Positions 3,479 to 59,116 are shown, numbered from the stretch's first letter. The stretch is 59,116 nucleotides of DNA from an uncultured Bacteroidota bacterium (GCA_903889915.1 CAISZK010000029.1:1-59116); one strand, 5' to 3'. Notes: a model not told the origin generated them from the letters alone. Translations and numbers: made by a program.

Positions 3479-3531
3479 ATCAAATACACTACACCTCAAA
3501 ATATAATTATTTTGGGGTGTAGTGTAAATTT

Positions 3532-4494
3532 ATGAAAAATCTGATTTTCATACTATTATTCTTCATTTTTCAAACTTTTCATTTTTCCATTCTTAAAGCT
3601 CAAAATTTAGTTCCAAATCCTGGATTTGAAGAAAAAAATGAATGTCCTTATTCACTAAATCAAATAAAATATACAAAATATTGGGTCGGTAGTAAAGATG
3701 CGGATTATTTTAATTCATGTGATTCTATTGTAAATGATACAATTAATTATATTTGGGTTGGAGTACCTCAAAATAAAGGAGGTTATCAATATGCACATTC
3801 TGGTAATGCTTATGCTGGTATGTATTTTTTTTGGTTTATTTATAATAATTATAGCGAATATCTTGAAGTTAAATTAAAAGATAGTTTAATAGCCAATGTA
3901 AAATATTGTATAAGTTTTTATGTTTCACTTGCTGATTCTGAAAGTTATGCTATTGATGCTATTGAGGCCTATTTATCAACAGATTCCACATCTACTTTGT
4001 CAAATCAAACTTTACCTTATCATCCACAAATTAGTAATTATGGACATGGTATCATTTCAGATAAAACAAACTGGCATTTAATATCCGGAAATTTTGTAGC
4101 ACAAGGAGGTGAAAAATATATTACAATCGGAAATTTTAGATTAAAGGACAGCTTAAATTATATAAATACCGGAACAGGCATAGAAGATTTGGCTTATTAT
4201 TACATTGATGATGTATCGGTAATAGCATGTTTAGACACAATAGGGATAGCTGAAATGGTAGGAAATGAAATTATTATTGAAATATTTCCAAATCCAGGAA
4301 ATAATAATATCACAATTGAAACTCCATACCAATCCACAATAAATATTTCCAACATTCAGGGCCAATTATTAAAAACCCTCACAACCACCGGCACTAAAAC
4401 AAATGTTGATGTTTCAGAATTTCCCAGTGGAGTTTATATTGTGGAAGTGAAAACAGAAAAAGGAATTGCCGTAAAGAAATTTATTAAAGAATAA
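3532..4494 (+). CDS. Secreted 'QNLVPNPGFE' CBM-like domain protein with a T9SS C-terminal domain (paralog)
   Basis: The C-terminal 70 aa are nearly identical to 508-1470 (…GVYIVEVKTEKGIAVKKFIKE). Confidence 0.75.
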   Translation: MKNLIFILLFFIFQTFHFSILKAQNLVPNPGFEEKNECPYSLNQIKYTKYWVGSKDADYFNSCDSIVNDTINYIWVGVPQNKGGYQYAHSGNAYAGMYFFWFIYNNYSEYLEVKLKDSLIANVKYCISFYVSLADSESYAIDAIEAYLSTDSTSTLSNQTLPYHPQISNYGHGIISDKTNWHLISGNFVAQGGEKYITIGNFRLKDSLNYINTGTGIEDLAYYYIDDVSVIACLDTIGIAEMVGNEIIIEIFPNPGNNNITIETPYQSTINISNIQGQLLKTLTTTGTKTNVDVSEFPSGVYIVEVKTEKGIAVKKFIKE

Positions 4495-7745: not shown

Positions 7746-7805
7746 TCAATGATTATTTTAAGCAGTAATTGATCTGTAATGGGCATTCTCTTGCGCTACT
7801 TCCGC

Positions 7806-7897
7806 CAATGACCAATGTCTCATTGACTATTGACTATTGACTATTGACAAATGACCAATGACTATTGACTATTGACTATTGACCAATGACCATTGAC
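7806..7897. repeat. Heptamer array (A/T)(A/T)TGAC(N) between convergent genes
   Basis: caatgaccaatgtctcattgactattgactattgactattgacaaatgaccaatgactattgac... Confidence 0.8.
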
Positions 7898-9571
7898 TTA
7901 TTTACAATGTTCTTCGTAAGCTGATTTCGCCTCATAATAGTTCAATTTCATTGCCTCTTCAAAATCCAGGCATGCTTCCGTTTTTTTGCCAAGAAGAATG
8001 CGCACAAAAGCACGTTTATAATAGGCTTCCGCCAAAGTTGAATCAAGTGCAACAGCTTTCGAAAAACTTAGATCAGATTTGTCGTATTGCTTATTGTACA
8101 TGTAGGCATAGCCCAGATCCATCTCTGTTTTGGCTAATTTGGGGTTAATGCTTAAAGCTTTATTGAGGTCCTGAATGGATGATTCATAATCCTCAAGAAT
8201 GTTATAATATTCAGATCTGGCAATATAGATTTGTATGCAGGCTGAATCAACCTTGATGGCTGCCTTGTAATCCGCAAAAGCTTTGGCGCTATCATCAAGC
8301 GCCCGGTAGAAATAGGCCTGAATCAGATAAGCCGGAATATATTTATTATTCAGTTCAAGGCTGTGAGCAATATCCGTTTGTGCACTGTCAATATTTTCTT
8401 TGCCTGCATAAGCCAACCCACGTAAATAGTAATAATTGCAATTATTCGGGTTTAGTTTCATTGCATCGGTATAGTCTCTTATAGCATCATTGAAATAACC
8501 TGTTTGAAGATAACAATTCCCCCTGCTGAATAAAATGAAACCTTCCGTTGGATTGAGTTCGGCAGCCCTGGTAAGATTATAAATTACACCCTGCAGATTT
8601 TTAAGTTTAATATTGATATAAGCACGTAACAGAAAAGACTGGCTGTCGTTGTTGTCAATTTTGATTGCCTTGCTCACATAGGTTATCGCTTTGTCATTTT
8701 CGCCAAGGACATAGTACATAAAAGCTTTGCTGTAAATGGCCGGGACGCTAAGCGAATCAATTTTTAAAGCGCTTTCAAAATCGTATTTCGCATATTCAAA
8801 TTGCTGCTGAAAACAATAGACATTCCCGCGGTAAACATAGGCCGGCAGATAGCCCGGGTTTATGGCAATCGCCTTCGTAAGATCATCGAGCGAACTGCTG
8901 AAATCTTCCATTGAATAGTATAGGATGCCCCGGTTTATAAGCGGGATGCAGTTCGTTGAATTCCCTGATTTGACAGCCGCCGAAAAATCGGCCAAAGCAG
9001 GTGTGCTTTTCTTCAAATTATAATTTACGATGCCCCTGTTATTATAAACATAAAGATCGCCATCGGTTTTTGAAAGATATTTCGTGAAAGCTTCAAGCGC
9101 CTTGTTGTAATTGCCGAGGCAGGTATATGCAAGTCCCAGGTTGTGGTAAGAATAAGTGTAATCAGAGTCGGTTTCAATGGCTATGAGCAGGTCGTGCAAA
9201 GCCTTTTCATGTTCACCAGTCATCAGATAAACATATCCCCGCAGGTTGTAAGCTTCCGCAAAATTAATGTCGGCAGCGATGGCATCAGTGATAGATGATT
9301 CTGCACGGGAATATTCCTTGTCACCGCACTGTTCAATTCCCTTTTCATAAAATTCTTTTGCTTTTTTTGAGACATGCGATTTTACTTCTTTTTCAAGTGA
9401 AACAGGAATATCCAACAAAATAAAGTTTGCTTTCCTTGTCATCCGCCAATTGAGTGTGTCCTGTGAAAAAAGAAGGGAGGGGAAAATGAGGACAATTGCA
9501 AACAGACAAACCCCGGGAAGATATTTTATTTTCCGGATTTTATAAAGGTTACTGTGTAAGCAAAAATGCAT
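7898..9571 (-). CDS. TPR repeat protein with an N-terminal membrane or signal segment
   Basis: Many 34-aa TPR motifs (…AEAYNLRGYVYL…, …YNNRGIVNY…). Confidence 0.75.
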   Translation of the reverse strand: MHFCLHSNLYKIRKIKYLPGVCLFAIVLIFPSLLFSQDTLNWRMTRKANFILLDIPVSLEKEVKSHVSKKAKEFYEKGIEQCGDKEYSRAESSITDAIAADINFAEAYNLRGYVYLMTGEHEKALHDLLIAIETDSDYTYSYHNLGLAYTCLGNYNKALEAFTKYLSKTDGDLYVYNNRGIVNYNLKKSTPALADFSAAVKSGNSTNCIPLINRGILYYSMEDFSSSLDDLTKAIAINPGYLPAYVYRGNVYCFQQQFEYAKYDFESALKIDSLSVPAIYSKAFMYYVLGENDKAITYVSKAIKIDNNDSQSFLLRAYINIKLKNLQGVIYNLTRAAELNPTEGFILFSRGNCYLQTGYFNDAIRDYTDAMKLNPNNCNYYYLRGLAYAGKENIDSAQTDIAHSLELNNKYIPAYLIQAYFYRALDDSAKAFADYKAAIKVDSACIQIYIARSEYYNILEDYESSIQDLNKALSINPKLAKTEMDLGYAYMYNKQYDKSDLSFSKAVALDSTLAEAYYKRAFVRILLGKKTEACLDFEEAMKLNYYEAKSAYEEHCK

Positions 9572-25794: not shown

Positions 25795-25975
25795 GAATAC
25801 ATGTTATAGTGACTCTAACTCAAATTACAGACACTTTTCATCATGTAAAGTCGTCCCGAATACATGTTACAGTGACTATAACTCATATTACAGACACTTT
25901 TCATCGTGTAAAGTCGTCCCGAATACATAATACAGTGACTAAAACTCATAGTAGGGACAACTTTACAACTAGTAA
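25795..25975. repeat. 62-bp tandem repeat, ~3 copies
   Basis: gaatacatgttatagtgactctaactcaaattacagacacttttcatcatgtaaagtcgtccc is repeated, and the third copy has diverged. Confidence 0.8.
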
Positions 25976-26116
25976 AGCGGCTTTTACATCTTGCAAAGTC
26001 AATAATTCACTTAATAAGCGGGATTTAAGTGGTGATTATACATCCCATTATTAAATTGCGGCGGAGTGCGCTTCGAATCATCTTCAGGTACGTTGACCAG
26101 TTCCGCCACGACTTAA

Positions 26117-27415
26117 TTAAAAATTCCCAATTTCAGAAATTGCATACAGCGGCAAATTTATCAGCCAGTCCTCTTTCTTGTAATCAGACATTGAACTCCT
26201 GACAGCTATGACCGGGTTATACTTCTGGCAGAATACCTTTAAACTTTTAGCCTGCAAATTTTCTTCAGCTTTCACTTCTACCGGGATAACCTTTCCATTA
26301 TGCTGTATGATAAAATCAATTTCAGCAGTTGATTTTTCTGCTGACCAATAATAAACATTAAATTCTTTTTCAGAAACCAATTGCTGCAAAACATATTGTT
26401 CAGTGAGGGCTCCCTTAAACTCTTTAAAAATGGCATTACCTTCCAGTAATGTTTTGACATCAATGTTTCCCATTGCTGAAAGTAGTCCAATATCAACAAA
26501 AAATAATTTGAAAGAAGAAAAATCCAAATATGCTTTAAGCGGAATGGCACTGTTAGACACACGGCTGACTTTATGTATAAGACCACCGTCAATCAACCAA
26601 GCCATTGCTATTTCATAATCTTTTGCCCTGGTGCCTTCTTTAATGACACCATAAATAAACTTACGATTTTCTTTTGCCAATTGTGCAAGGACGGAGTTCC
26701 ATAACATTCTTACCTTAGGAACAATTTCATGAGGCGCATGTTTTGAAAAATCCAGTTCGTAAGCCTCCAAAATTTGTTTTTGTATCTCACGGACTTCTGC
26801 ATAATCATTACGCTCACGAAAGGCATTTACAACTTCTGGCATACCGCCGATAAAATAATATTGACGCAAAAGTTGAATATATTTTTGTTTAAAGGTTTTT
26901 ATTAAATCCCATTTTTTGTCCTCAAGAAGCGACACCAGATTTTTTTGCCCAAGAGCCGTCATAAATTCAGTAAGTCGCAATGGATGCAGATCCAGAAATT
27001 CCACTTTACCAACCGGGAAAGAGGTATGCCTGTGCAAAGCGACACCCAGTAAAGAGCCGGCAGCAAGTACATGATATCCGGGAGTGTTTTCATGAAAATA
27101 TTTTAGCGATGTGAGCGCTCCTTCTGCTTCCTGAATTTCATCAAGAATGATCAAGGTGTTGTTTTCATTGAATAATACGCCTGTTTCAATTTGCAAGGCT
27201 TCAACTATCCTGTCAATATTGAAATCCTCCTTAAAAATATTTTGAAGATGTTTGCTGCTCTCAAAATTGACATAAATACACTGTTCGTATTCCCGCTTTC
27301 CAAATTCTTTCATCAGCCAGGTTTTGCCGACCTGACGAGCACCTCTTAAAAGTAAGGGCTTTCTGGTTTTGGATCTTTTCCATCGTTTTAATATCTCTAT
27401 TTCGGCTCTTTCCAT
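26117..27415 (-). CDS. AAA family ATPase (AAA_14 + DUF4143 type)
   Basis: LLLRGARQVGKT Walker A and LIILDEIQ Walker B. Paralog of 39436-40773 and 42372-43499. Confidence 0.8.
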   Translation of the reverse strand: MERAEIEILKRWKRSKTRKPLLLRGARQVGKTWLMKEFGKREYEQCIYVNFESSKHLQNIFKEDFNIDRIVEALQIETGVLFNENNTLIILDEIQEAEGALTSLKYFHENTPGYHVLAAGSLLGVALHRHTSFPVGKVEFLDLHPLRLTEFMTALGQKNLVSLLEDKKWDLIKTFKQKYIQLLRQYYFIGGMPEVVNAFRERNDYAEVREIQKQILEAYELDFSKHAPHEIVPKVRMLWNSVLAQLAKENRKFIYGVIKEGTRAKDYEIAMAWLIDGGLIHKVSRVSNSAIPLKAYLDFSSFKLFFVDIGLLSAMGNIDVKTLLEGNAIFKEFKGALTEQYVLQQLVSEKEFNVYYWSAEKSTAEIDFIIQHNGKVIPVEVKAEENLQAKSLKVFCQKYNPVIAVRSSMSDYKKEDWLINLPLYAISEIGNF

Positions 27416-28863: not shown

Positions 28864-29319
28864 GGCTTTAATGTTTAGTATGAAGATTCAAAAAAGAGCG
28901 TAAAAAGCATTGCAATTATTTTAAAAATTTCCTGAAACCGGTTTCAATGAGTAAAAAAACACCTGTTTTTATTTGCCGGTTTTCTAAATCTACGCAATCT
29001 ACTTGCGCAATTGAAGGTATTTGACAAAAAACATGAAATTTTAATTTTACTAAAACCAATAGTTTAGCATGAAATATTCTGCAAAAGTAAAAATATTTTT
29101 CATTGCGCAATTCGGTTGCGCAGTACAGTATTTATTTTGCATCATCAAAATGATGAATCGTTCTTTGACTAAAAATATTTTCCTAAACAGGATAAAGATC
29201 TTCCTTTACCGGAAGGATATGAAATAATTTGAAAGGCCTCTGATGAGAGTTTCTTCAGGCTCCATAGTATCGTTAACCGTTGGTTTATGATATGCTGCCC
29301 GTAGATTTATCGCATATCA

Positions 29320-29550
29320 GTTTTGTTGTGTGTCGTGGGTTCGACTCCCACTCCGTGAAAGCGGATAACTCAGGCGGATAGAGTAACAACACTGCGCAGG
29401 TTCGAATCCTGCTCCCAATCAAAAATCGGGATAACTCAATTGGTAGAGTATTGGACTGTTAATCCAATGATGAAGAATGCCACTTCTGAAAAGGCAACCG
29501 GAAAAGAAAGGAATAATGTTGCTCTGTGGTTCAATCCACGATCAGGCCAT
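29320..29550 (+). other. Cluster of tRNA-derived fragments. No complete tRNA could be folded by eye; these may be pseudo-tRNAs or att remnants.
   Basis: T-arm plus acceptor-like segments GTGGGTTCGACTCCCAC, GCAGGTTCGAATCCTGCTCCCAATCA and GTGGTTCAATCCACGATCAGGCCA. D-arms ACTCAGGCGGATAGAGT and ACTCAATTGGTAGAGT. One anticodon arm TTGGA-CTGTTAA-TCCAA (GTT, Asn-like). Confidence 0.4.
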
Positions 29551-29878
29551 GGCTTGAGAGCATGCAGATACCGGCAGGAAAATTGCAAAATTGCAGATGG
29601 TCAGCAATTTCCTTTTACAACATTTCGTTTATCAAATGATGTAAAAGTAACAATGAAAAATCATAAAAAGTTTGTGCAATATTCCCGTCTTAAGCAGGCT
29701 TCCGCCACAGGAAGGATGAGCTTATTATTTCTTTCTTTATTAATGAAACCGAACAATCAGCATAGAAAAGCATAAGAAAAAAGATGTGAATTTATGCGGG
29801 TAACAAAAAAATAAAATGAAAAAAATTGATCAGCATAAGCAGTGCGGATCAGCGTAAAAACAACCTAAAAATAAAATT

Positions 29879-30985: not shown

Positions 30986-31050
30986 AAGTTCCAAGCTCCA
31001 AATTCCAAGCTCTCTCGCTTCCCTGGAATTTGGATTCTGGATCTTGTAAC

Positions 31051-31086
31051 TAGTGACTAATGACTATTGACTAATGACTGATGACA
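31051..31086. repeat. Heptamer (A/T)ATGAC(N) array
   Basis: tagtgactaatgactattgactaatgactgatgaca. Confidence 0.7.
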
Positions 31087-37723: not shown

Positions 37724-38635
37724 ATGAAAAATTCAAGTTATGATTATTTCCAGGAAGAACTGGATAATCATGCAAATCAATTAAATCAAATCCCATCTCT
37801 CAACTTCCACCTAACCGGCTCCTGCAACATGCGCTGCCGTTACTGTTTTTCTCATTATGAGAAAGACCATGCTGAACTTGCTATGTCTATGCCCGAACAG
37901 GCACAGATAAAGCTTATCAGAGAATTGTTCACCATTGGCTTTCGCAAGATATCTTTTGCCGGTGGTGAGCCTACCTTGTGCAGACACCTGCCACGGTTGG
38001 TCCAGTTTTCAAAAAATATTGGTTTCACAACCATGCTTGTCACCAATTCATCCCGAATTGATGATGCGTTATTACGAAGTTTTCATGGAAGTCTCGATTG
38101 GCTTTGCATCAGCATTGACAGCCTGAAAACTTCAACAAATCTAGAGATAGGGCGCTGCCTGTCCAATGGTTTTGTTCTATGCGAGGATTATTACAAGCAA
38201 ATTATTGAGCTTGCCAGAGAGCATGGTTTGCGCTTAAAAATAAACACTGTGCTAAGCCGGTTCAACCTCCATGAAAACTTTACCGGTTTCCTGTTGTGGG
38301 CAAAACCCGAACGATGGAAGGTGTTCCAGGTACTGCCTGTTGTTGGGCAAAATGAAACTGCTTTCAATGAATGTTCCATCACTGAGGATGAAATGAGTCT
38401 GTTTCTGACAAAGCATGCATCACTGCAAAAACTGTTCGATATAATTCCGGAAAGAAACAATGACATGAAAGGCTCTTATGTGATGGTAAATCCTTCCGGA
38501 AGATTCTACTGCAACATCAACGGGCAGCATACCTACAGCGATCAGGTACTTGAAGCAGGAGCAAAAATGGCGATTGCTCAAATGTCTTATGATTTCGCGA
38601 AATTCATCAATCGTCAGGGTCTTTATAAATGGTAA
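37724..38635 (+). CDS. Prokaryotic viperin (pVip), a radical SAM enzyme that synthesises ddhNTP
   Basis: CNMRCRYCF (CxxxCxxC). ISFAGGEPTL, LKINTVLSRFN, RWKVFQVLPV and DMKGSYVMVN...LYKW align along the full length to the RSAD2 core. Confidence 0.85.
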   Translation: MKNSSYDYFQEELDNHANQLNQIPSLNFHLTGSCNMRCRYCFSHYEKDHAELAMSMPEQAQIKLIRELFTIGFRKISFAGGEPTLCRHLPRLVQFSKNIGFTTMLVTNSSRIDDALLRSFHGSLDWLCISIDSLKTSTNLEIGRCLSNGFVLCEDYYKQIIELAREHGLRLKINTVLSRFNLHENFTGFLLWAKPERWKVFQVLPVVGQNETAFNECSITEDEMSLFLTKHASLQKLFDIIPERNNDMKGSYVMVNPSGRFYCNINGQHTYSDQVLEAGAKMAIAQMSYDFAKFINRQGLYKW

Positions 38636-38646
38636 CCAATAAACTT

Positions 38647-39183
38647 ATGAAACACAAAATCACTATCAGCGGAAAAGCCGGTTCCGGTAAAAGTACAGTC
38701 TGAAAATTGCTTGCAGAAAAACTTCAGGTTCCATTCCATTCTGTTGGCAACACCACACGCGGGTATGCAAAAAGAAACTTCGGACTTGGCATCATAGAAT
38801 TTCAGCAGTATTGCCTGTCACATCCTGAAGTGGATAAAAAACTGGATGAATATTTCAGTAAAATGGGGCATGAAATGGATGGCTTTGTAATGGACTACAG
38901 GCTGGGATTTCATTTTATTCCTGAGGCATTTCATGTCTTGCTTACGGTGCCTGATGAAATAACTGCTCACCGAGTATTGGCAGCCAAAAGAAATGACGAG
39001 TTTACAACAACTGATTATGAAACGATATTGCTAGAACTAAAGACCAGGAATGCTAAGATGCGCGAGAGGTTTATTAATCAATATAGCGTGGATTACGAAG
39101 ACAAGGTCAATTACAATCTGGTATTAGATGCATCCAAAATAGACCCATTTGAATTAGTTCGCAAGATCAAGGATTCTTTTTAA
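38647..39183 (+). pseudogene. Cytidylate (CMP/nucleotide) kinase-like gene associated with pVip, interrupted by one in-frame TGA at 38701-38703
   Basis: MKHKITISGKAGSGKSTV-TGA-KLLAEKLQVPFHSVGNTTRGY... P-loop and lid are in one frame. The ORF track resumes at TTG 38707. Confidence 0.7.
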
Positions 39184-39189
39184 TGATCT

Positions 39190-39310
39190 GTTTGTGATTT
39201 ATTGGACGCTGATTGTTGCGGATAATGCGGATTTTATTGACTATTGACGTAATGACCAATGACTATGAATGACGCGTAACAAAATGACAATAAATGGCCA
39301 ATGACTTTCG
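39190..39310. repeat. Composite intergenic repeat: core GGACGCTGATTGTTGCGGATAATGCGGATT followed by (A/T)ATGAC heptamers
   Basis: The same module recurs at 40812, 42044, 42152, 43524 and 45975. Confidence 0.85.
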
Positions 39311-39435
39311 ACAACAACAAACTCTTTAAACAATAAACATTTTAAACTACATAGAACTGTTACAAAAAAAGACAATTTTTACCTTGGTTTTAATACATAA
39401 ATTAGTATTTTTGCATTTGGATTTATTACAAAATC

Positions 39436-40773
39436 ATGTTCGATAGGTTAATTATTAGCAGTTTGAAAACCTGGGCTGACAGCAGTCCCTGCAAACCACT
39501 TGTGCTAAGGGGGGCACGACAGGTTGGAAAAACAACATTGGTCAAAGAATTTGCCAAAGAGTTTTCAGTTTTTATTCATCTCAATCTGGAAAAAGAAGAA
39601 CAAAGACGAATCTTTTCCTCAGGCAAAAACTTCCCTGAACTACTTGATGCCATTTTTTATTTGAGCGGAAAAGAGAGGAATAAAGGCAAAACTTTGATAT
39701 TTATTGATGAAATTCAGAACTCGCCAGAAGCTATCGGTTACTTGCGCTATTTTTACGAAGAAGCGCCCGAATTATTTGTCATAGCTGCCGGATCCCTGCT
39801 TGAAAGCATGCTCAACCGGAATATTTCTTTTCCTGTGGGCAGAGTTGACTATATGGCTTTACGTCCATGCTCATTTCTGGAATTTATAGGAGCCTTGGGT
39901 GAACAAGTATCTGCCGAAATGATCACCAGCGGCGCTGTTCCTGGCTTTGCACATGAGAAACTCAAATCATTGTTTCATCGTTATGCACTGATTGGAGGCA
40001 TGCCCGAAATAGTAGCGGTTTATGCTGCTACCGGTGACCTGATCCGGCTGAAAAAGACGTACCAAAGCCTGCTTGCCGGCTTCAGCGATGATGTGGAAAA
40101 GTATGCAAGTAACAATGCAATGATTCACTACATCAGGCATATATTCAAAACAGGGTTTTCTTTTGCCGGGCAAAGGATAAAGTTTGCGAATTTCGGCGTT
40201 TCCGATTATCGCTCGCGTGAAATGGGAGAAGCATTTCGCACACTTGAAAAGACTATGCTGCTCGAATTGATCTATCCTGCCTCGTCTGTCAGCATTCCCA
40301 TCCTGTCTAATTATCGTAAATCACCGAGATTACAATGGGTTGATACAGGACTGGTAAACTATGCTGCAGGCGTACAGCATGAGATATTCACTTCACCAAG
40401 CATAATGACAGCATGGAAGGGCATCATAGCCGAGCATATTACAGGGCAGGAACTATTGGCTTATGATAATGATGTATTGAGCAAAAGACATTTCTGGACC
40501 CGCGAAGAAAAAAACTCAATGGCTGAAATTGATTTCATTTTTAATTATAATGGTATCATCATTCCCGTTGAAGTGAAGTCAGGCGATACTGGCAGGTTGA
40601 GGTCACTACATTTGTTTATGGATGCCGCATCACATAAAATTGCTGTAAGAATTTGCCAGGAGAAGTTTGCTGTAATTGATTTAAAAACCATAAAAGGAAA
40701 ACCATTCCGGCTTATCAGTATTCCTTTTTACCAAATTTCGCAAATCAGTCAAATTTTGGATAAATACGTGTAA
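39436..40773 (+). CDS. AAA family ATPase (AAA_14 + DUF4143 type)
   Basis: LVLRGARQVGKTTL and LIFIDEIQ. Paralog of 26117-27415. Confidence 0.8.
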   Translation: MFDRLIISSLKTWADSSPCKPLVLRGARQVGKTTLVKEFAKEFSVFIHLNLEKEEQRRIFSSGKNFPELLDAIFYLSGKERNKGKTLIFIDEIQNSPEAIGYLRYFYEEAPELFVIAAGSLLESMLNRNISFPVGRVDYMALRPCSFLEFIGALGEQVSAEMITSGAVPGFAHEKLKSLFHRYALIGGMPEIVAVYAATGDLIRLKKTYQSLLAGFSDDVEKYASNNAMIHYIRHIFKTGFSFAGQRIKFANFGVSDYRSREMGEAFRTLEKTMLLELIYPASSVSIPILSNYRKSPRLQWVDTGLVNYAAGVQHEIFTSPSIMTAWKGIIAEHITGQELLAYDNDVLSKRHFWTREEKNSMAEIDFIFNYNGIIIPVEVKSGDTGRLRSLHLFMDAASHKIAVRICQEKFAVIDLKTIKGKPFRLISIPFYQISQISQILDKYV

Positions 40774-40811
40774 AGTGGAAACATTGAACCCTTTTAATGA
40801 CCCAATGAACC

Positions 40812-40926
40812 AAAAAGATTTTTGATTTAAGATTTATAGGACGCTGATTGTTGCAGATAATGCGGATTTTAATAACTATTGACCAATGACAATCAATGAC
40901 TATTGACTTAATGACCAATGACTAAT
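40812..40926. repeat. Composite intergenic repeat (TTTGATTTAAGATTT… core plus heptamers)
   Basis: aaaaagatttttgatttaagatttataggacgctgattgttgcagataatgcggatttt…. Confidence 0.85.
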
Positions 40927-40952
40927 TTTTCAACAACCTAAAAATTAAAACA

Positions 40953-42029
40953 ATGCAAGCAGTTTACATCAACCGTCCTTCGAACCCGGATCAGAAGATA
41001 GAGGAACCAATGGTTTTATACATTCTATGCCTTATTGCAGAAAAGTTTTCGTATTGCTGTGAACTTTCTCTTTTCATTAATATCTGGCAAATGCAGAAAG
41101 TTTGGAATGATAAAACAATATTTAATTTGTACTATAATAACATACCGCCCCGGGCATTTTTTCTTGAGAGAGAAAAGGCTGAGGATATTATGAATGGAGT
41201 CAGAAATGCAAAAAAACATAAGCATAAAAATAAAGATGACCTGGAGGTTATACATTTAGGGATGAAACTTATCAACGACATGAAAGAAGACCTGCTGAGT
41301 TACTTCAAAAGTCATTTAAAAAGAGTCCATATTTACGAAATGATTGATCTGCTTGATGAGAAAATTGCAACAATACTTCCATATATTTTACCTAAAGACA
41401 AAGAATATTACACCAACAACGAGTTATTCCAGTTTCTTCATGAAGTAATTGTTGACAGCGAAGAAATAATGTTTTTCCATTGTTTCCCTGAAGTTTTCAC
41501 TAAAGGAAATGCCCTAAATATTGAAGAGAACAAGCCGGTAATTGACAACAGTAAACAGAATTTTATTTCATTACCACTTTTTAAAATTCCAGGTTGCTCT
41601 GATTTAAGCGCCGCCAATATGAAATACATACGTTCAAAAATGCTCCCATACATTAAACCACTTTCAGAATTAATCTACGAATTGAAGGAAATGGCTGCCG
41701 GTGAAGTTTTTGGTTTGGAATTGTTCAGGAAAGTTCAGGAAATTTATTCCAAAATAAGCATTGAATCACAAAAAATACAAGACCTGATCAAAAATGAAAT
41801 TTATTTTCAGCAATTTATCAATTCAAAAGAAAAGTACATTGATTTTTTTCTATACGCAGGAGTTGGTTCTCTCGATACCCTGATTTACTTATTCCAACGC
41901 AATAAGGTAATTGAAGACTTTTCAGCCACAGCACTCAGGAAAAACATTGAAAGGCAATATGACCTTCAATCATGCGATGCTTTCCTTTATTGGGACATTC
42001 GCGATATGGAAGGGAATATTATAGAGTGA
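40953..42029 (+). CDS. Hypothetical protein
   Basis: 358-aa ORF with no recognisable motif. Flanked by the composite repeats. Confidence 0.45.
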   Translation: MQAVYINRPSNPDQKIEEPMVLYILCLIAEKFSYCCELSLFINIWQMQKVWNDKTIFNLYYNNIPPRAFFLEREKAEDIMNGVRNAKKHKHKNKDDLEVIHLGMKLINDMKEDLLSYFKSHLKRVHIYEMIDLLDEKIATILPYILPKDKEYYTNNELFQFLHEVIVDSEEIMFFHCFPEVFTKGNALNIEENKPVIDNSKQNFISLPLFKIPGCSDLSAANMKYIRSKMLPYIKPLSELIYELKEMAAGEVFGLELFRKVQEIYSKISIESQKIQDLIKNEIYFQQFINSKEKYIDFFLYAGVGSLDTLIYLFQRNKVIEDFSATALRKNIERQYDLQSCDAFLYWDIRDMEGNIIE

Positions 42030-42043
42030 CTTATGACCTTATA

Positions 42044-42286
42044 AAGATTTAAGATTTTGACTTATTTGACGCAGATTGTTGGGATAATGCGGATTTTAAT
42101 GACTATTGGCTCAATGACTAATGACTATCAATGACGTAAAACAAATGACCTAAAAAGATTTGAGATTTTTGATTTAAGATTTTTTGAACGCTGATTGTTG
42201 CGGATACCGCGAATTCAATGACTATTGACCAATGACAATGAATGACGTGAAACAAATGACACGAAGTAAATGACTATTGACATAAT
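42044..42286. repeat. Two tandem copies of the composite intergenic repeat
   Basis: Copies at 42044-42150 and 42152-42286. Confidence 0.85.
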
Positions 42287-42371
42287 GTCTTAAAATAATA
42301 GCGTTTTTTCCTGACTGATTTAACAAAAAATATCTATCTTTGCTGACTGAATTTATAAAAATTGAGTCAGC

Positions 42372-43499
42372 ATGATAACCCGATTTATAAAAAAACAGAT
42401 ACTTGATTCGGTTGCAAAACCAAATAAAGTGACAGGAATTTTTGGCGCCCGCCGAACAGGAAAAACATTCCTGATGGAGGAAATAAGAAAAGAACTTAAG
42501 CGTGAAAAGATCCTGATGGTACAAGGCGAAAATCTTGATGTGGCTGAAATACTCTCAAGTCGCCGGCTTAGCCTGTTGCAACAAATGGTGCAGGGTTACA
42601 AATACCTCTTCATTGACGAAGCCCAGAAAATTCCTGATATTGGTACTAACCTAAAACTAATGGTTGATTCCATCAAAGGACTGCACATCCTTGTTTCAGG
42701 CTCTTCATCTTTCGATCTGAAAAACAAAATCGGCGAACCGTTGACCGGAAGGAGTAAATACTTTTATTTATATCCCATCGCACAGTTGGAATTGGACGAG
42801 GATTTCTTCACAGCAAAAACTTCACTTGAGAACCGGCTGATATATGGCAGCTATCCACAGGTACTCACAGCCACCAATAATAAAGAACGCATGGAAATTC
42901 TAACATCTTTGCGTGATGGTTATTTGCTGAAAGACATGCTGGAATTGGACAATCAGAAGGACACTATTTTCGTTTTTAACCTGCTTCGGTTAATTGCTTT
43001 CCAGGTTGGCAATGATATTTCCTTCACCGAACTTGCTTCAAATTTGAATGTGAACAAACTTACTGTGATGCGTTACCTTGACCTGCTTGAAAAATGTTAT
43101 GTGCTCTTTTCTCTGAGGGGTTTCAGCCGTAACCTGCGCAAAGAATATACGAAAAGTCCACGCTATTACTTTTGGGACAACGGCATCAGGAATATTTTAA
43201 TTGCAAATTTAAACCCACCCAATATCAGAGATGATATCGGTAAACTATGGGAAAACTACTGCATTTCCGAGCGGTTGAAGAAGTGTCATTACACACGAAA
43301 AACTGTAAACCATTATTTCTGGAGGACCTACGATCAGAAAGAAATAGACCTTGTTGAGGAAGGTTCCGGCAAACTAAAAGGGTATGAAATAAAATGGACA
43401 AAATCGAAAGTAAAGCCACCAAAGGATTTTCTGGAAGCATACGGCAATGCTTCATTTCACGTGATCAACAGGGATAATTACCTTGATTTTATTACTTAA
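42372..43499 (+). CDS. AAA family ATPase (AAA_14 + DUF4143 type)
   Basis: GIFGARRTGKTFL and LFIDEAQK. Confidence 0.8.
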   Translation: MITRFIKKQILDSVAKPNKVTGIFGARRTGKTFLMEEIRKELKREKILMVQGENLDVAEILSSRRLSLLQQMVQGYKYLFIDEAQKIPDIGTNLKLMVDSIKGLHILVSGSSSFDLKNKIGEPLTGRSKYFYLYPIAQLELDEDFFTAKTSLENRLIYGSYPQVLTATNNKERMEILTSLRDGYLLKDMLELDNQKDTIFVFNLLRLIAFQVGNDISFTELASNLNVNKLTVMRYLDLLEKCYVLFSLRGFSRNLRKEYTKSPRYYFWDNGIRNILIANLNPPNIRDDIGKLWENYCISERLKKCHYTRKTVNHYFWRTYDQKEIDLVEEGSGKLKGYEIKWTKSKVKPPKDFLEAYGNASFHVINRDNYLDFIT

Positions 43500-43523
43500 T
43501 ATTTACAATAAATACGGTTAAAA

Positions 43524-43735
43524 AAATTTGAGATTTTTGATTTAAGATTTTTGATTTATTGAACGCTAATTGTTGCAGATAATGCGGATTCAATGACTAT
43601 TGACTATTGACTATTGACTCAATGACTATAAATGACGCCCCGCATTTGGCGGAATAGACTCCGCAAATGACGTACAACAAATGACTATAAATGACGCGCA
43701 GCAAATGACTTAATGACCAATGACTATTGACTATC
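43524..43735. repeat. Composite intergenic repeat with an extended heptamer array
   Basis: ...tttgatttaagatttttgatttattgaacgctaattgttgcagataatgcggattcaatgactattgactattgac... Confidence 0.85.
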
Positions 43736-45845
43736 AATTTTCCGGCATATTCAGCTTTTGCATAGCCATCGTATTTTCGGGGTCAAGGTCGAGGGTTTTG
43801 CGATAGTGGAAGTCGGCGGCGTAAGGCATTTTCAGGTTGTTGTAACATTCGGCAGCAGCAATATGATAATCTTTGTTAAGGGGGTAATAGAATGCGCATA
43901 TTTCATAACAAAGAACTGCATACTGGTAATTTTTCGATTGTGCGAACGCTTCGCCGGCATCGAACATATCAGTATAATTCTCTGAAGGATCCAGGTTGAA
44001 CGATTTCTCAAATTCCTGTGCGGCTTTAAAATATTCCTTTTTCTCCATCAGCAAACGCCCCTTCATCCTGAAGCCTTCTGCATTATCAGGATCTTTATCA
44101 AGGACAGCTTTTGTGGCTTCTTCAACTTCTCTGACCATACCCAGCTTCATATAAAAATCGCATAGTCGCGATACCAGCGATTCATCTTCAGGGTTGGCTT
44201 CTATCAACTCCTTAATGATGGGGATGCAATTATCATAATCATTCTGTTTCTCGTAGTTATCAAGCAGGCAGTAACGCGCCCTTTCATAAAAAGGCTCAAG
44301 TCCGTAACCTTTCAGCGAAAGCACCTTTTTGTATAAAGGAATTGCCTGTTCAGGTGCGTGCATCTGGTTGAATATATCCGCTTTGATAAAATAGAGGTTA
44401 GGATGATAAGGCTGACCCTTTGCTTCGGCACGTTTAACAAGTTCGCTCGCTTTCTGGTATTCGTGCCTGTTTATCTCTTCCTGTGCTTTTCGCAGCAGCA
44501 GTGTTGCATCATCAGGATGCTGGGTCAGGGCTTTTTCAAGCGCTTCAGTTTTGCCTTTCTCATCACGCTTTTCGTTGAAATGATCCATGATGATATGCCA
44601 GTCGTCAACATCAAAGAAAGGGCTTCCCATACCGCTAAGATAATTATGTATGGTCTCTTCACGCAGGTCGTCAGTTTCTGAAAAATCGTCATTAAATGTT
44701 TCGTCGGGTTTGTCAATGTCAGTTGTTTCATCTTTCCCGTCTTTGAACTTCAGATTGAGGTATTCCACAAAATGGTCGTAAAGATCATTGATCACATTGA
44801 ATTCATCAGCCATAGCATCAAAGCCGGCTTCGAACTCTTTACGCATATCGCTGTAAGAACCCAGGTATTCCTGGTGATCGCTATCAACCTGGGTGGTATC
44901 TAATGAATAGCCGCTCCAGTCAGAATTCATATCATGAACCATTTCACTGATCTCATCATAAAGCGGGAAAGTGCTCTCTTTCTCTCTCTCCTCTTCTTCT
45001 TTTTCATCATCCACACCAAGATATCCATTATATCTTGCCGAGTATAAACGATTATATTCATAGTTCAGATCATTCAGCTCCTCTACAAACTCCTTCATGT
45101 AGTTATTAAAATCGTCAGTAAGTTGTTGCTGTTCTTCAGCAGAAGGCACTTTAAAACATACAACCGGGCTGAACTCACCTTTCATTTGTGCAGGGGGAAT
45201 ATAAATGGTGTTTGTAGCAAGATCTGCTTTATCTTTTGCAACGTAAAAACGGCTCCATAATTCTGGTAACGCCTCATGCAGTTCTTTTGTCCGTTTACAC
45301 AGATCACTGTAATATCCGGGCGTTGCTTCATGCAATGCAATGTATTTTTCAATAAACTTTTTTTCAGTATCGTTTAATGGTTGGCGTTTCTCATACAGCA
45401 GATGTATGGTACGCAAAGGAGTTTCATGAATGATCTTGTCTGTTTGATGTCCGAAGACCTCGCGGTCCACACCATAAGTCTTGTCGCACGTAGTAAAGCG
45501 TTCAGATATGCCTTGCTTTTCGTCCCAGGCAGCACACGCGGCAATGTTTTCATCCAGTTGCTTCTTAAGGCTATCGCATTCTTTACCTTTAGCCTCTTTA
45601 TATCGGGTATAAAGTTCGTCGTTGTGCTTTCTGAACTGCGACCACTGCTTCATTTCCTCCTTGGTCCATCCCAGGAATTGCCACACAGGCTCGCTTACTT
45701 CTTTTTTATCATTGCTTGAATGATCCGGAATACCTTCGGCGTCACGGGGATATTCCGTGCGGTTCCGTATGGTTTGTAAATGATCGTCTGTGCATCTAAT
45801 GAATTTATTGAATTCTTCGATGTCAAAAGGAATGAGGTGTACCAT
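43734..45845 (-). CDS. Hypothetical protein with an acidic central region and C-terminal TPR repeats
   Basis: 703-aa ORF. The C-terminal ~250 aa have a TPR-like periodicity. Confidence 0.55.
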   Translation of the reverse strand: MVHLIPFDIEEFNKFIRCTDDHLQTIRNRTEYPRDAEGIPDHSSNDKKEVSEPVWQFLGWTKEEMKQWSQFRKHNDELYTRYKEAKGKECDSLKKQLDENIAACAAWDEKQGISERFTTCDKTYGVDREVFGHQTDKIIHETPLRTIHLLYEKRQPLNDTEKKFIEKYIALHEATPGYYSDLCKRTKELHEALPELWSRFYVAKDKADLATNTIYIPPAQMKGEFSPVVCFKVPSAEEQQQLTDDFNNYMKEFVEELNDLNYEYNRLYSARYNGYLGVDDEKEEEEREKESTFPLYDEISEMVHDMNSDWSGYSLDTTQVDSDHQEYLGSYSDMRKEFEAGFDAMADEFNVINDLYDHFVEYLNLKFKDGKDETTDIDKPDETFNDDFSETDDLREETIHNYLSGMGSPFFDVDDWHIIMDHFNEKRDEKGKTEALEKALTQHPDDATLLLRKAQEEINRHEYQKASELVKRAEAKGQPYHPNLYFIKADIFNQMHAPEQAIPLYKKVLSLKGYGLEPFYERARYCLLDNYEKQNDYDNCIPIIKELIEANPEDESLVSRLCDFYMKLGMVREVEEATKAVLDKDPDNAEGFRMKGRLLMEKKEYFKAAQEFEKSFNLDPSENYTDMFDAGEAFAQSKNYQYAVLCYEICAFYYPLNKDYHIAAAECYNNLKMPYAADFHYRKTLDLDPENTMAMQKLNMPEN

Positions 45846-45974
45846 ATTAAAAGGTTTTTATCAATATTGGATGAGCAAAGGTACAAATATTTTCAATTGA
45901 CCAAAGTCAATTGCTATTGATAAATTTTCACCAAACTTTATCAATATCCTCTATCTTCAGTCAAGGGGTTTATG

Positions 45975-46037
45975 GACAAATTTTTGATTTTTAAGATTTT
46001 TGATTTATAGGACGCTGATTGTTGCGGATACCACTCA
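45975..46037. repeat. Composite intergenic repeat core without a heptamer tail
   Basis: tttttgatttttaagatttttgatttataggacgctgattgttgcggatacc. Confidence 0.8.
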
Positions 46038-46257: not shown

Positions 46258-46530
46258 GAGACCTCTTGCTGAGTAAATGAAACCTTTCGCTGAGCGAATG
46301 AAACCTTTCACTAAGTGAATGAGACTTCTCACTGAGTAAATGAAACCTCTCGCTGAGTGAATGAGATCTCTCACTGAGTGAATGAAACCTCTCGCTGAGT
46401 GAATGAAACCTCTCACTGAGTGAATGAAACCTCTCGCCGAGTGAATGAAACCTCTCGCTGTGTGAATGAGACTTCTCACTGAAGGAATGAATACTCTCAC
46501 TGAGTGAATGAGACCTCTCACTAAGTGAAT
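46258..46530. repeat. 21-bp direct tandem repeat, ~13 copies, with no spacers
   Basis: Consensus CTGAGTGAATGAAACCTCTCG. On the minus strand it reads as the heptad peptide repeat SVRGFIH inside ORF 46249-46596. Confidence 0.85.
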
Positions 46531-46757
46531 GGTCTCTTTCCCTTTGGCAACATAATTATTCAACAGAGACATGTATAATGTTATTTTTCGAGTCAATGAT
46601 TTGCAAAAATATTTAAGATGAAATTTGAAATAGAAAGACTATTAATGAACGGAAATAAAAAAACGGATTCTCTTCGATGTGTTGAATTCAACCCGTTTTA
46701 TTGAAATTTCTAAATTGAAAAACTATTTCATGAGGTTTCTGAATTTACGTCAAAACA

Positions 46758-47489: not shown

Positions 47490-48209
47490 AATTGAAAAAT
47501 TTTATTGATTAATGATGTAAAATTACTTCAGAAAAAACTTCTGTGGAGAACTGTTCCCGTACTGTTCCCGTACTGTTCCTGTACTGTTCCTTTTTTGTTT
47601 TTTCGGAATTTCACGAAACCCTTAATGGCAGCGGTGTTGAAGGGTGTTGCAGTCAAATCATTTTTCCGGGTTTTTTTTAAATTTATTTTTATTTTTTTTA
47701 AAAAATGACATTAATAAAATTGAATATCCGTTATTGTGTCTGTATAATTTCTTAGGAAATGACTATTAAAATTAATTATTGATATAAAGTTGCCACAAAT
47801 TATTCACGAAAGCTACAATTTAAAAAAAGTGTTCATGAGCTTCGCAATGTTCACAGATTTCAAAATCTCAAAACAGATTTCCTCAGATTGGAAAATATAA
47901 ATTGTAAAAAGAATTTTTATCCCAAAGTTTCGGGATTCTGTGAACATCATTATTTTTTTTCTTAATCTTTGAATTTGTGGCATCCTGTTCCATGGCATCA
48001 AAGTTAATTTTTGAAAACTTACCGTCTTTTTCATAAAGGTATAATTGCGGATATTCAAAATGCATAATAACATCTCTATCGGAAAATCTTGCATGATATA
48101 GCAATCCTATTTTCCCAAACATTTATAAAAAACACCTCTCTAATGCAATATTCATTCAATTATTACGATATTTGCATTCTGATTTGAGCATTGGAATAAC
48201 CCAACATCA

Positions 48210-49209: not shown

Positions 49210-49245
49210 TAATGACTAATGACCACTGACTAATGACCACTGACA
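49210..49245. repeat. Heptamer array overlapping the dxr start
   Basis: taatgactaatgaccactgactaatgaccactgaca. Confidence 0.7.
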
Positions 49246-56261: not shown

Positions 56262-56378
56262 CAGTCAAAAGTCATTAGTCAATAGTCATTGGTCAATAGT
56301 CATATGATCCTTGCAAATAACCAATGACTGCTGACTAATAACTAATGACTACTGACCATTGACAAATGACAATTAATA
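56262..56378. repeat. Inverted heptamer array (GTCATT×n then AATGAC×n)
   Basis: gtcattagtcaatagtcattggtcaatagtcat ... aatgactgctgactaataactaatgactactgaccattgacaaatgac. Confidence 0.8.
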
Positions 56379-56379
56379 A

Positions 56380-58101
56380 ATGAAACAAAAAACCCCGATA
56401 ATATTATTCTTCTTTATCCTCATTCTCTTTTCATCTTGTGGGATATTTAAGCATTCTAAGAAATCAGCGCTTACACAGGATCAGAAATTAGAAAATACTG
56501 CTGAATTTATTGATGGTTGCAGGGAGAAAGCTCTTCTGGATTATGATAAAGCAATTACATGTTTTTTAAAATGTATCAAAACCGATCCCTCCAATGCTGC
56601 TGCAATGTATGAGGTGGCCGGGATTTATTATTTGCAGAAAAAGAGTAAAGATGCAATGCCGTTGGCTGAAAAAGCAGTTAAACTTGATCCTGACAATAAC
56701 TGGTACCAGATGCTTTATGCAAACCTTTTAATTGATGCCTTGCGATACAAGGAAGCCAGGGCTATTTATGAAAAGTTAGCCAAAGCCAATCCCGGCAATG
56801 TTGAATACTATTTCGACTGGGCCGACGGATGTATCTATATGGGAAAATACCAGGAAGCTATTGATGTGTACGATGAGGTTGAGAAAAAACTGGGCGTTAG
56901 TGAAGAGTTGTCTTTGCAGAAAGAAAAAATCTATCTTGAATTAAAGAAAACAGATAAGGCAATTGAAGAAATTCAAAAGCTCGTTGATGCGTTTCCGACC
57001 GAAACAAGCTATTATAATTACCTTGCAGACCTGTATCTGAAAACCGGTAATACCAGCAAAGCTTATGAAATTTACAAGAAGATTCTTGAAATTAATCCTG
57101 CCGATGCGAATGTGCACTTATCTCTGGCTGATTATTACCGTAAGGTAAATGAGAAAGATAAATCTTTTGATGAACTGAAGCTTGCCTTTTCTAACCCCGG
57201 TCTGGATATTGATGCCAAGGTAAAAATACTTTTGTCCTACTACACCCTTACTGAAAAATCGGATGAACTCAAGGAGCAGGCTTATGCTTTGCTGGATCTG
57301 ATGATGAAGTCTGATTCAAATGAAGCCAAAGCACATTCCATCTACGCCGATTTTTTGTATCGTGATAAAAAAGTGAAGGAAGCCCGTGATCAATATTTAA
57401 AGGTTGTAGCCATTGATAGCAGCAAATTTGCAGTGTGGAAAGAATTATTGGCATTGGAAGCTGAATTGAATGATAATGCCGGCCTGGAAAAGCAAAGCAA
57501 ACGAGCCATCAGTATGTTTCCTGAACAGTACATATTGTACTTGTATAATGGGATTGCTGAATATTCGCTGAAAAAATATGATGAGGCCATTACCTCCCTG
57601 AACAAGGGAGTTGCGCTTGTGGTTTATGATGATGCCATGCTCGAAGAGTTCTACACCTACCTTGGCAACTGCTATTATGAAAAGAAAAATTACAAAGACG
57701 CTTATCTCGCATTTGACAAAGTTCTGGATATTGATCCTAAAAATGTTCTTGTCCTGAACAACTATGCATACTATCTTTCAGAGCAGGGTGAAGACCTTGA
57801 CAAAGCTGAAAAGATGGCAAAGAAAGCCGTTGATGCCAGCCCCGACAGTTCGTCATATCTCGACACTTATGGCTGGGTGTTTTATGTGGAAAAGAAATAT
57901 TCTAATGCAGAGACGTGGATAAAAAAGGCAATTGACAAAGGAGGAAGCTCCAATTCCACGATTCTCGAACATTACGGTGATGTTCAATACCGGTTGGGCA
58001 ACGTGGATAAAGCCCTTGAATACTGGAAATCCGCAAAAGAAAAAGGCACAGGGTCTGACTCGTTGGATAAGAAAATAACTGATAAAAAAATTGGTGAGTA
58101 G
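56380..58101 (+). CDS. TPR repeat lipoprotein
   Basis: Lipobox LFSSCG. Many TPR units. Confidence 0.7.
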   Translation: MKQKTPIILFFFILILFSSCGIFKHSKKSALTQDQKLENTAEFIDGCREKALLDYDKAITCFLKCIKTDPSNAAAMYEVAGIYYLQKKSKDAMPLAEKAVKLDPDNNWYQMLYANLLIDALRYKEARAIYEKLAKANPGNVEYYFDWADGCIYMGKYQEAIDVYDEVEKKLGVSEELSLQKEKIYLELKKTDKAIEEIQKLVDAFPTETSYYNYLADLYLKTGNTSKAYEIYKKILEINPADANVHLSLADYYRKVNEKDKSFDELKLAFSNPGLDIDAKVKILLSYYTLTEKSDELKEQAYALLDLMMKSDSNEAKAHSIYADFLYRDKKVKEARDQYLKVVAIDSSKFAVWKELLALEAELNDNAGLEKQSKRAISMFPEQYILYLYNGIAEYSLKKYDEAITSLNKGVALVVYDDAMLEEFYTYLGNCYYEKKNYKDAYLAFDKVLDIDPKNVLVLNNYAYYLSEQGEDLDKAEKMAKKAVDASPDSSSYLDTYGWVFYVEKKYSNAETWIKKAIDKGGSSNSTILEHYGDVQYRLGNVDKALEYWKSAKEKGTGSDSLDKKITDKKIGE

Positions 58102-58924: not shown

Positions 58925-59116
58925 AATTGTCATTAGTCATTAGTCAGTAGTCATTAGTCAATAGTCAGTAGTCAGTAGTCAATAGTGACGAATGACCAAA
59001 TAACGAATGACCAAATGACGTATGACAAATGACGTATGACAAATGACGTATGACAAATGACGTATGACAAATGACTAATGACCCCAATGACAAATGACTA
59101 TTGACAAATGACTCAA
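58925..59116. repeat. Long inverted heptamer array (GTCATTA/GTCAGTA repeats then AATGAC/GACGTAT repeats)
   Basis: gtcattagtcattagtcagtagtcattagtcaatagtcagtag...gaatgaccaaatgacgtatgacaaatgacgtatgacaaatgac... Confidence 0.8.

Follow-up and report, generated by a model that had tools for sequence, protein, structure and literature searches.

Introduction

Six copies of a composite intergenic repeat, five full and one truncated, are present on the + strand between positions 39184 and 46034 of a contig from an uncultured Bacteroidota bacterium (GCA_903889915.1 CAISZK010000029.1:1-59116), where they lie among the genes of a defense island. The contig was analyzed over its whole length of 59,116 bp, referred to here as the window, and all coordinates are counted from its first letter. 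The repeat, hereafter the module, reads in the order of an A-rich linker, three to five GATTTNN heptads (the head), a core of approximately 30 bp, and a tail of TGACNNN heptamers. The module is real and statistically solid, and it is a lineage-specific composite intergenic repeat; it constitutes a variant of a known intergenic heptamer-repeat phenomenon, with a cassette-like role that is suggestive but unproven. We tentatively favor the reading that a satellite-derived composite repeat was spread locally by homologous recombination and supports cassette-like gene turnover, which is possible rather than assured. This reading is based on the architecture of the modules, their mosaicism, the similarity of copies around gene blocks, a related locus in another lineage (L044), and a parallel arrangement in an unrelated lineage (L068).

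Occurrence and Anatomy of the Module

The core anchor ACGC[T/A][G/A]ATTGTTG starts at positions 39206, 40841, 42069, 42188, 43563, and 46012, always on the + strand, and a head-plus-core profile searched with nhmmer gives exactly six matches in the window (E 7.5e-13 to 1.6e-19), the next-best match having E = 1.6. Both searches recover in place, on the + strand, all six sites listed in a preliminary description of this DNA. The 30-mer taken from that description matches three times when up to three mismatches are allowed (0.00 expected in shuffled sequences), and a 19-mer matches five times (0.02 expected). The six modules are packed into 6.9 kb, with zero in the remaining 52 kb, and they occupy five consecutive intergenic regions among the 33 longer than 40 bp, an arrangement with a chance of approximately 1e-4 according to a combinatorial estimate on the list of intergenic regions. 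In order, the genes concerned encode a prokaryotic viperin (pVip) and its kinase partner, an ATPase (AAA1), a 358-aa protein, a second ATPase (AAA2), and a convergent TPR protein. The copies are as follows.

M1, 39184..39307, + strand: directly after the kinase stop; degenerate head, core GGACGCTGATTGTTGCGGATAATGCGGATT (39204-39233), TGAC tail
M2, 40806..40926, + strand: after AAA1; GATTT heptad head, core at 40839-40868, TGAC tail
M3, 42040..42150, + strand: after the 358-aa gene; most degenerate core (GACGCAGATTGTTG-GGATAATGCGGATT)
M4, 42151..42296, + strand: in tandem with M3, upstream of AAA2; core variant GCGGATACCGCGAATT; nearest to M5 (85%)
M5, 43520..43733, + strand: after AAA2; longest head; long tail abutting the convergent TPR gene at its stop codon
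M6, 45975..46034, + strand: truncated, with head and core-left only; ends at GCGGATACC, no heptamer tail

The GATTTNN heptads are reported by Tandem Repeats Finder (TRF) at 40815, 42155, 43532, and 45980, and the core consists of three 9-mers, GCTGATTGT, TGCGGATAA, and TGCGGATTT; the direct sub-repeats previously noticed in the core are thus borne out, as three 9-mers following three to five heptads. From copy to copy the tails align in register, with AATGACGYRWAACAAATGAC as a shared motif, and therefore the whole unit of approximately 100-135 bp was copied, instead of the unit of approximately 60 bp first proposed. On reading of the sequence, TGAC-type units stand on both sides of every full copy and each module is preceded by a degenerate ATGAC unit, which places the head and core inside a TGAC array. 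Module starts lie 1-40 nt past the stops of the + strand genes upstream. The tail of M2 stops 27 nt short of the ATG that starts the 358-aa gene and is without the ATGACGYRWAACAAATGAC tail motif, the start-to-start spacing of M3 and M4 is 119 bp with no gene in between, and M6, upstream of where the TPR gene starts, closes the cluster on the right. A heptamer tail had been ascribed to every site; it is present in five of the six copies and absent from M6 (45975-46034). The claim that every gene is bracketed individually holds insofar as modules separate several genes, and is slightly overstated for the pVip and kinase genes, which share a single module on their 3′ side with no module upstream of the pair, and for the TPR gene, whose orientation is opposite to that of the modules.

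No secondary structure was detected in the module with RNA folding parameters (fold z-scores of -1.67 to +0.86 on both strands of the six copies), a repeat finder returned no inverted-repeat arms inside any module, and Rfam 15 gave no match for the module at gathering or E-value thresholds. The absence of a hairpin, as asserted in the preliminary description, is therefore confirmed, as is its statement that the element is not a terminator: six terminator-like sites were found versus 5.7 expected, none of them on the + strand in a module, and the sole site in a module is on the - strand (43654-43638), where the M5 tail contains a small, terminator-like GC hairpin (43638-43654). An intrinsic terminator was rejected because no module has a GC-rich hairpin plus U tract on the + strand. 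A promoter scan revealed no excess of sigma-70 promoter-like sites.

The Heptamer Tail as a Member of a Known Repeat Class

TGAC heptamer arrays were found by TRF in 9 of 33 intergenic regions and in no coding region. The arrays without head or core are as follows.

7805-7898, + strand: TGAC array
31049-31085: TGAC array
49210-49244: TGAC array
56263-56383: TGAC array
58929-59112: TGAC array, inside which the window contig ends

Two of the TGAC arrays are inverted array pairs, and forward arrays reach the start codons at 31097, 49233, 56380, and about 59124. The array at 58986-59112, before a downstream M23 peptidase gene, is 28 bp (2 × 14) shorter in one assembly (L052), whereas two others (L051 and L053) agree with the window on the longer form; the difference is a slippage polymorphism. 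The arrays within the six modules are invariant in four assemblies. With at least three tandem 7-nt units, intergenic placement, many loci, and copy-number polymorphism, the tail is an ordinary satellite of this genome and a member of the known class of intergenic heptamer repeats. The view that the ATGAC tail is part of the element consequently stands only in part: the tails are in register in the full copies, and the same heptamers form a generic satellite elsewhere in the window instead of belonging to a dedicated site.

Intergenic heptamer direct repeats have been described in cyanobacteria, Beggiatoaceae, and a few Bacteroidetes (MacGregor 2015, PMC4679880), an example being TAACTGA, which is repeated in Beggiatoaceae, Cyanobacteria, and five Bacteroidetes (MacGregor 2015, PMC4679880); a regulatory role has been proposed for the class (10.1101/2022.06.06.494920). 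Similar to the cyanobacterial short tandemly repeated repetitive (STRR) sequences, the “long simple sequence repeats” (LSSR) (Mrazek et al., 2007), and the TAACTGA repeats, the arrays of the window comprise tandem 7-nt units that are strictly intergenic, occur at many loci per genome, are orientation-biased, often abut start or stop codons, are occasionally paired as inverted arrays, and differ in length from strain to strain. By contrast, the units here are TGACNNN and GATTTNN, which differ from those described; a non-satellite core of approximately 30 bp is added and was copied together with its flanking arrays as a unit of approximately 120 bp; and the head-plus-core module is seen, within the 59-kb contig, only in the defense island. 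Different heptamers may adjoin in one spacer (PMC4679880), and the same is seen in an 8-kb viral contig (L064, IMGVR_UViG_3300001580_001303), in which many heptamer arrays (GATTTAG, GATTTGA, TCACTGT, CTGGTTG, AATTCAA, and TTGTTAC) often lie side by side, a multi-heptamer intergenic architecture in a virus.

Comparison of the Copies and of Related Loci

Head-plus-core identity between copies is 70-90%. The closest paralog of M1 is M3 (90% over head plus core), and this pair flanks the block AAA1-M2-358-aa gene; M4 and M5 (85%) flank AAA2. Since the closest pairs flank gene blocks, the pattern is that predicted by Campbell-type insertion. Furthermore, of 45 pairs of informative sites within about 50 bp, 24 fail the four-gamete test, which indicates either exchange between copies or recurrent mutation. 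Segmental duplication was rejected as the origin of the repeats: with only 27% identity between AAA1 and AAA2 over 136 aa, the repeats are not leftovers of gene duplication.

Four metagenome assemblies of the same strain are 99.8-99.9% identical, with all modules unchanged, and exact-protein look-ups returned the same strain only, with invariant modules. In the related locus L044 (source ERZ19049208), an ortholog of AAA2 (97% identical in amino acids and 92% in nucleotides) has modules on both sides; the gene upstream of AAA2 is different there, and an IS1634 transposase gene lies downstream. The downstream module of L044 (nhmmer E 7e-10) has a 27-nt insertion and a replaced core-right, and the upstream one is a variant with the same tail and a different core. 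Between the window and L044, synonymous sites of AAA2 diverge by 32.5% (dS 0.43, dN/dS 0.036), whereas the head plus core-left diverges by 12% (5/42; P = 0.002 against synonymous sites) and the whole aligned module, riddled with indels, by 17.7%. Because head and core-left have changed less than synonymous sites, a sequence-specific role is possible, either protein-binding or at the RNA level, and the comparison suggests that these parts may also be read by something, probably a protein.

Homologs of AAA2 that are 64-79% identical occur in many Bacteroidota and in Elusimicrobiota, and their neighborhood differs in every lineage examined. Since the homologs are widespread and each lies in a different neighborhood, AAA2 behaves as a mobile single-gene unit. 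In L068 (GCA_026391855.1, positions 2576-4340), a metagenome-assembled genome of an unrelated Bacteroidota lineage, the AAA2 homolog follows tRNA-Ala and lies between direct repeats of approximately 180 bp that are 87% identical over the first 92 nt and 81% overall, and these repeats begin with that genome's own 8-mer satellite (TCTTGCCT-type tandem arrays). Relatives of the TPR protein are at most 54% identical, and three loci of TPR orthologs (L041-L043) have neither synteny with the island nor a module.

In a separate locus (L045, 3540-4277), similar 8-mer arrays surround a 23S_rRNA_IVP gene in inverted orientation.

Proposed Spread of the Module by Homologous Recombination

In the favored reading, homologous recombination or gene conversion would have spread the head plus core locally, using homology provided by the TGAC arrays on either side; spread through these arrays would explain why the modules are always inside arrays, oriented with them, clustered, and mosaic. 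The resulting direct repeats would constitute portable homology, between which single defense genes could be inserted, deleted, or swapped by RecA-type (Campbell-like) recombination. The island would thus be cassette-like through homology and not through a site-specific integrase, and no dedicated biochemical function would be required of the module. The cassette-like layout that had been noted at the outset is upheld: unrelated genes are separated by the same oriented module, and in L044 AAA2 keeps its modules beside a different upstream neighbor.

Several points weigh against this reading. No recombination event was observed directly, and there is no presence/absence polymorphism of island genes among the four same-strain assemblies. 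The copies are only 70-90% identical, so that any spread is old. The module distribution refers to the 59-kb contig plus about 15 kb of overlapping assemblies, and L044 is the only related locus that bears modules; its different downstream neighbor is simply an IS1634 insertion. The low divergence of head and core-left fits purifying selection as well as concerted evolution. Finally, flanking repeats are missing in two of the four lineages with AAA2 homologs.

A bolder extension, which we consider quite improbable, is that the modules and the L068 repeats are landing pads of an unrecognized, integrase-free cassette system in Bacteroidota. Single defense genes, such as those for the PDC-S01 ATPase-nucleases, would then excise and reinsert by recombination at lineage-specific, satellite-derived repeats, and the PD-(D/E)XK nuclease domain of these genes, or some recombinase, might assist. 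If the favored reading is true, Bacteroidota defense islands, which are largely without integrons, might exchange single genes through short lineage-specific repeats derived from heptamer satellites instead of a dedicated integrase, and the long-known, functionally obscure intergenic heptamer arrays would acquire a concrete genomic role. If the module is only a local satellite variant, it is a matter of routine repeat annotation, with a practical consequence limited to assembly; contigs of this genome break at heptamer arrays.

Alternative Explanations and Similarity to Known Systems

The main alternative, close to the operator-like function suggested in the preliminary description, is that the module is a cis-regulatory DNA element, in which heptads and 9-mers bind a protein as a silencer, insulator, or operator controlling the defense genes. 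The direct sub-repeats without a hairpin and the conservation of head and core-left between two lineages are consistent with such an element. Heptamer repeats affect recF/recO expression in Nostoc (10.1101/2022.06.06.494920), and the GATTTTT unit of the head is a rotation of the TTTTGAT heptads of Vibrio cholerae ctxAB, which, according to 10.1101/2021.05.14.444153, form a regulator-recruiting array of 3-8 tandem copies bound by ToxR/H-NS; by analogy, the head might recruit a regulator. However, the ctxAB heptads are located in a promoter, whereas those of the module follow stop codons and no partner of the ToxR/H-NS type was identified. Moreover, the island encodes no candidate for a binding protein, the modules stand directly past stop codons and upstream of apparent -7 promoter motifs instead of at operators, the spacing of GAT units is irregular beyond the head, and in L044 the core-right of one copy and the whole core of the upstream copy are replaced. 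Taken together, cis-regulation is an unlikely account, albeit one that retains some weight. An RNA-level element, i.e., a U-rich 3′-untranslated region acting in non-canonical termination, processing, or stabilization, or a leader of the downstream gene, roles put forward for other heptamer repeats, would suit the polarity that all copies share with the upstream + strand genes, 1-40 nt past the stop, and TGAC arrays elsewhere in the window reach start codons as the TAACTGA repeats do (MacGregor 2015, PMC4679880). Nevertheless, it is improbable in view of the lack of predicted structure, Rfam family, and terminator-like excess in the module, the position of M6 without a + strand gene upstream and of M5 against a convergent gene, and, on reading of the sequence, a promoter-like TAnnTTTG between the module and the next ATG in three cases.

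Site-specific recombination, or mobility of the module itself, appears less probable than either of these accounts. Like integron attC sites and the Vibrio cholerae repeats (VCR), elements of 60-130 bp stand here in one orientation after unrelated small accessory genes, often of defense; unlike attC and VCR, the module has no imperfect palindrome and no R''/L''-L'/R' boxes, the contig has no IntI and no attI/Pc, and the genes have their own promoter-like motifs, one gene being inverted. The preliminary description had raised an integron or site-specific recombination system, and the same-orientation repeats after each gene, the “empty” tandem M3-M4, and the defense-type genes would suit a cassette array of the integron type with a recombinase encoded beyond the contig. 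Contrary to this, neither inverted repeats nor a foldable bottom strand is present, and the attC boxes GTTRRRY and RYYYAAC were not seen on reading of the modules, the only GTT of the core standing in GTTGCGG or GTTGCAG, with a C at an R position and no RYYYAAC partner. The copies, at only 70-90% identity, share no invariant crossover core longer than about 12 nt, and neither the 39 kb upstream nor the 13 kb downstream yielded an integrase. Pfam scans, covering open reading frames (ORFs) of at least 100 aa over 7.9-59 kb plus precomputed Pfam matches for 0.5-11.7 kb, returned no tyrosine recombinase (Phage_integrase) and no DDE transposase in the 59-kb contig. An integron attC array is accordingly not supported, for want of a palindrome, R/L boxes, and an integrase in the contig, and site-specific recombination in general is regarded as barely probable.

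A non-autonomous mobile element like a MITE (miniature inverted-repeat transposable element), formed by head plus core and inserting preferentially into TGAC heptamer arrays, is hardly more probable. The segment is always inside TGAC arrays in one orientation, and a Y1 (IS200-type) transposase gene is present in the contig (1895-2332); conversely, the repeat finder returned no terminal inverted repeats, subterminal hairpins are lacking, no target-site duplications were read in the flanks, the Y1 gene has a palindromic repeat family of its own on its flanks, different from the module, in-register tails are not expected from insertion into pre-existing arrays, and such strong local clustering is atypical. 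The module resembles repetitive extragenic palindromic (REP) sequences, bacterial interspersed mosaic elements (BIME), and REPINs in being a short intergenic repeat mostly just past stop codons, although REPs are palindromic hairpins and the module, without a hairpin, fails as a palindromic stem-loop unit of the REP/REPIN kind; the REP-associated tyrosine transposase (RAYT)-like Y1 transposase of the contig has another, palindromic repeat family around it. The Neisseria intergenic mosaic elements (NIME), comprising dRS3 and RS blocks, are mosaic direct repeats between accessory genes that are thought to promote recombination-driven exchange; they belong to another phylum, are unrelated in sequence, and their dRS3 is a phage integration site for a dedicated recombinase, for which no recombinase-linked counterpart was found for the module in this analysis. 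The iteron reading of the preliminary description is not supported either, iterons being direct repeats of about 17-22 bp beside a replication initiator gene or origin: Pfam scans revealed no Rep/DnaA-type gene in the window, there is no replication initiator or origin context, and no plasmid- or phage-collection match was obtained, a blastn search with M4 being negative in these collections. The core pattern ACGCTRATTGTTGCRGATA has matches in species-representative genomes (16), metagenome contigs (16), and viral contigs (4), each being a single chance match; as only chance matches with unrelated flanks were returned, the source genome is not in those collections. Scans of viral sequences with the head and tail motifs likewise returned chance matches only, one of them in the heptamer-rich contig L064.

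Genes of the Island

The genes between the modules form a defense island. They are as follows.

37724-38635, + strand: prokaryotic viperin (pVip)
38647-39183, + strand: cytidylate-kinase-like partner of viperin, interrupted by an in-frame TGA (38701-38703)
39436..40773, + strand: AAA1, an AAA_14 + DUF4143 ATPase; defense candidate PDC-S01 (7.9e-177)
40953..42029, + strand: 358-aa protein of an uncharacterized family
42372..43499, + strand: AAA2, second PDC-S01 ATPase (AAA_14 + DUF4143; 1.2e-139)
43734..45845, - strand: 703-aa TPR protein, between M5 and M6; closest relative 54% identical

Five of these six genes are on the + strand and the TPR gene is on the - strand. The viperin/kinase pair has PADLOC-type defense matches (pVip-kinase, 6.6e-95 and 4.5e-41). 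The in-frame TGA of the kinase gene lies just past the P-loop (GSGKSTV*KLL), the gene calls are likewise truncated in three other metagenome assemblies (102 or 158 aa), and neighboring genes use TGA as a normal stop; the interrupted kinase represents either a pseudogene or a recoding event. DUF4143 we take to be of the PD-(D/E)XK nuclease class. Searches of Pfam, NCBIfam, and PADLOC gave no match for the 358-aa protein; its family comprises 137 representative clusters at 17-33% identity, apart from one fragment that is 100% identical, and its predicted structure (pLDDT 89.5) gave no convincing fold match in structure comparison. Further defense-type genes lie to the left, i.e., a third PDC-S01 gene, a WYL regulator, Band_7-RtcB, PDC-S05, and a RES-Xre pair.

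TAnnTTTG is the consensus of Bacteroides promoters, and on reading, TAnnTTTG-like motifs are located 23-31 nt upstream of the ATGs of AAA1, AAA2, and the 358-aa gene; the unrelated island genes apparently each have their own promoter. A near-perfect inverted repeat of 13 bp (GCTGACTGAATTT ... AAATTGAGTCAGC, 42341-42371) immediately precedes the start codon of AAA2. It is 100% conserved in L044 (445-475), where the upstream sequence has diverged, and is a candidate operator or 5′-untranslated hairpin.

Other Repeats and Features of the Window

A tRNA-linked island was rejected because ARAGORN finds no tRNA in the window and the core is unrelated to a tRNA-like region at 29200-29560. This region is a run of tRNA-like modules upstream of Band_7-RtcB, beside a divergent WYL-domain regulator, with sub-threshold YrlA (Y RNA-like) matches of 37 and 27 bits and an Rfam tRNA at 29425 that is not called by ARAGORN; it probably marks a Y-RNA-like, RtcB-type RNA-repair locus.

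The only transposase gene found in the contig (1895-2332; 145 aa, Y1, IS200/IS605-type, RAYT-like) is flanked by copies of a palindromic repeat of approximately 140 bp (1-140, 1617-1755, 1848-1890, and 2330-2400) with the hairpin AACCTTATTACCTT...AATAAGGTAATAAGGTT; gene and repeats look like a REPIN/RAYT system unrelated to the module. A 306-bp tandem repeat (5251-6451; 3.9 copies, 89% matches) lies inside a 968-aa Ig-like/Por_Secre_tail gene, and a 63-bp tandem repeat (25795-25983; 2.5-3 copies) is located approximately 130 bp past the third PDC-S01 paralog, on the side of its 3′ end.

26117-27415, - strand: third PDC-S01 paralog

To the right of the modules, a 115-aa - strand ORF is overlapped by a 21-bp tandem array (46261-46531; 12.9 copies, consensus ACCTCTCACTGAGTGAATGAA), to which two Joint Genome Institute (JGI) assemblies of the same strain add one further unit. 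At approximately 47600-47720 (16640-16830 in L037) there is a breakpoint of the assembly or of the strain: past about 47705, two assemblies run on through a TGAC heptamer array into different genes, and in most other assemblies a contig begins or ends no more than about 0.3 kb away. The junction of the window at approximately 47705 is supported by another contig of the same JGI sample.

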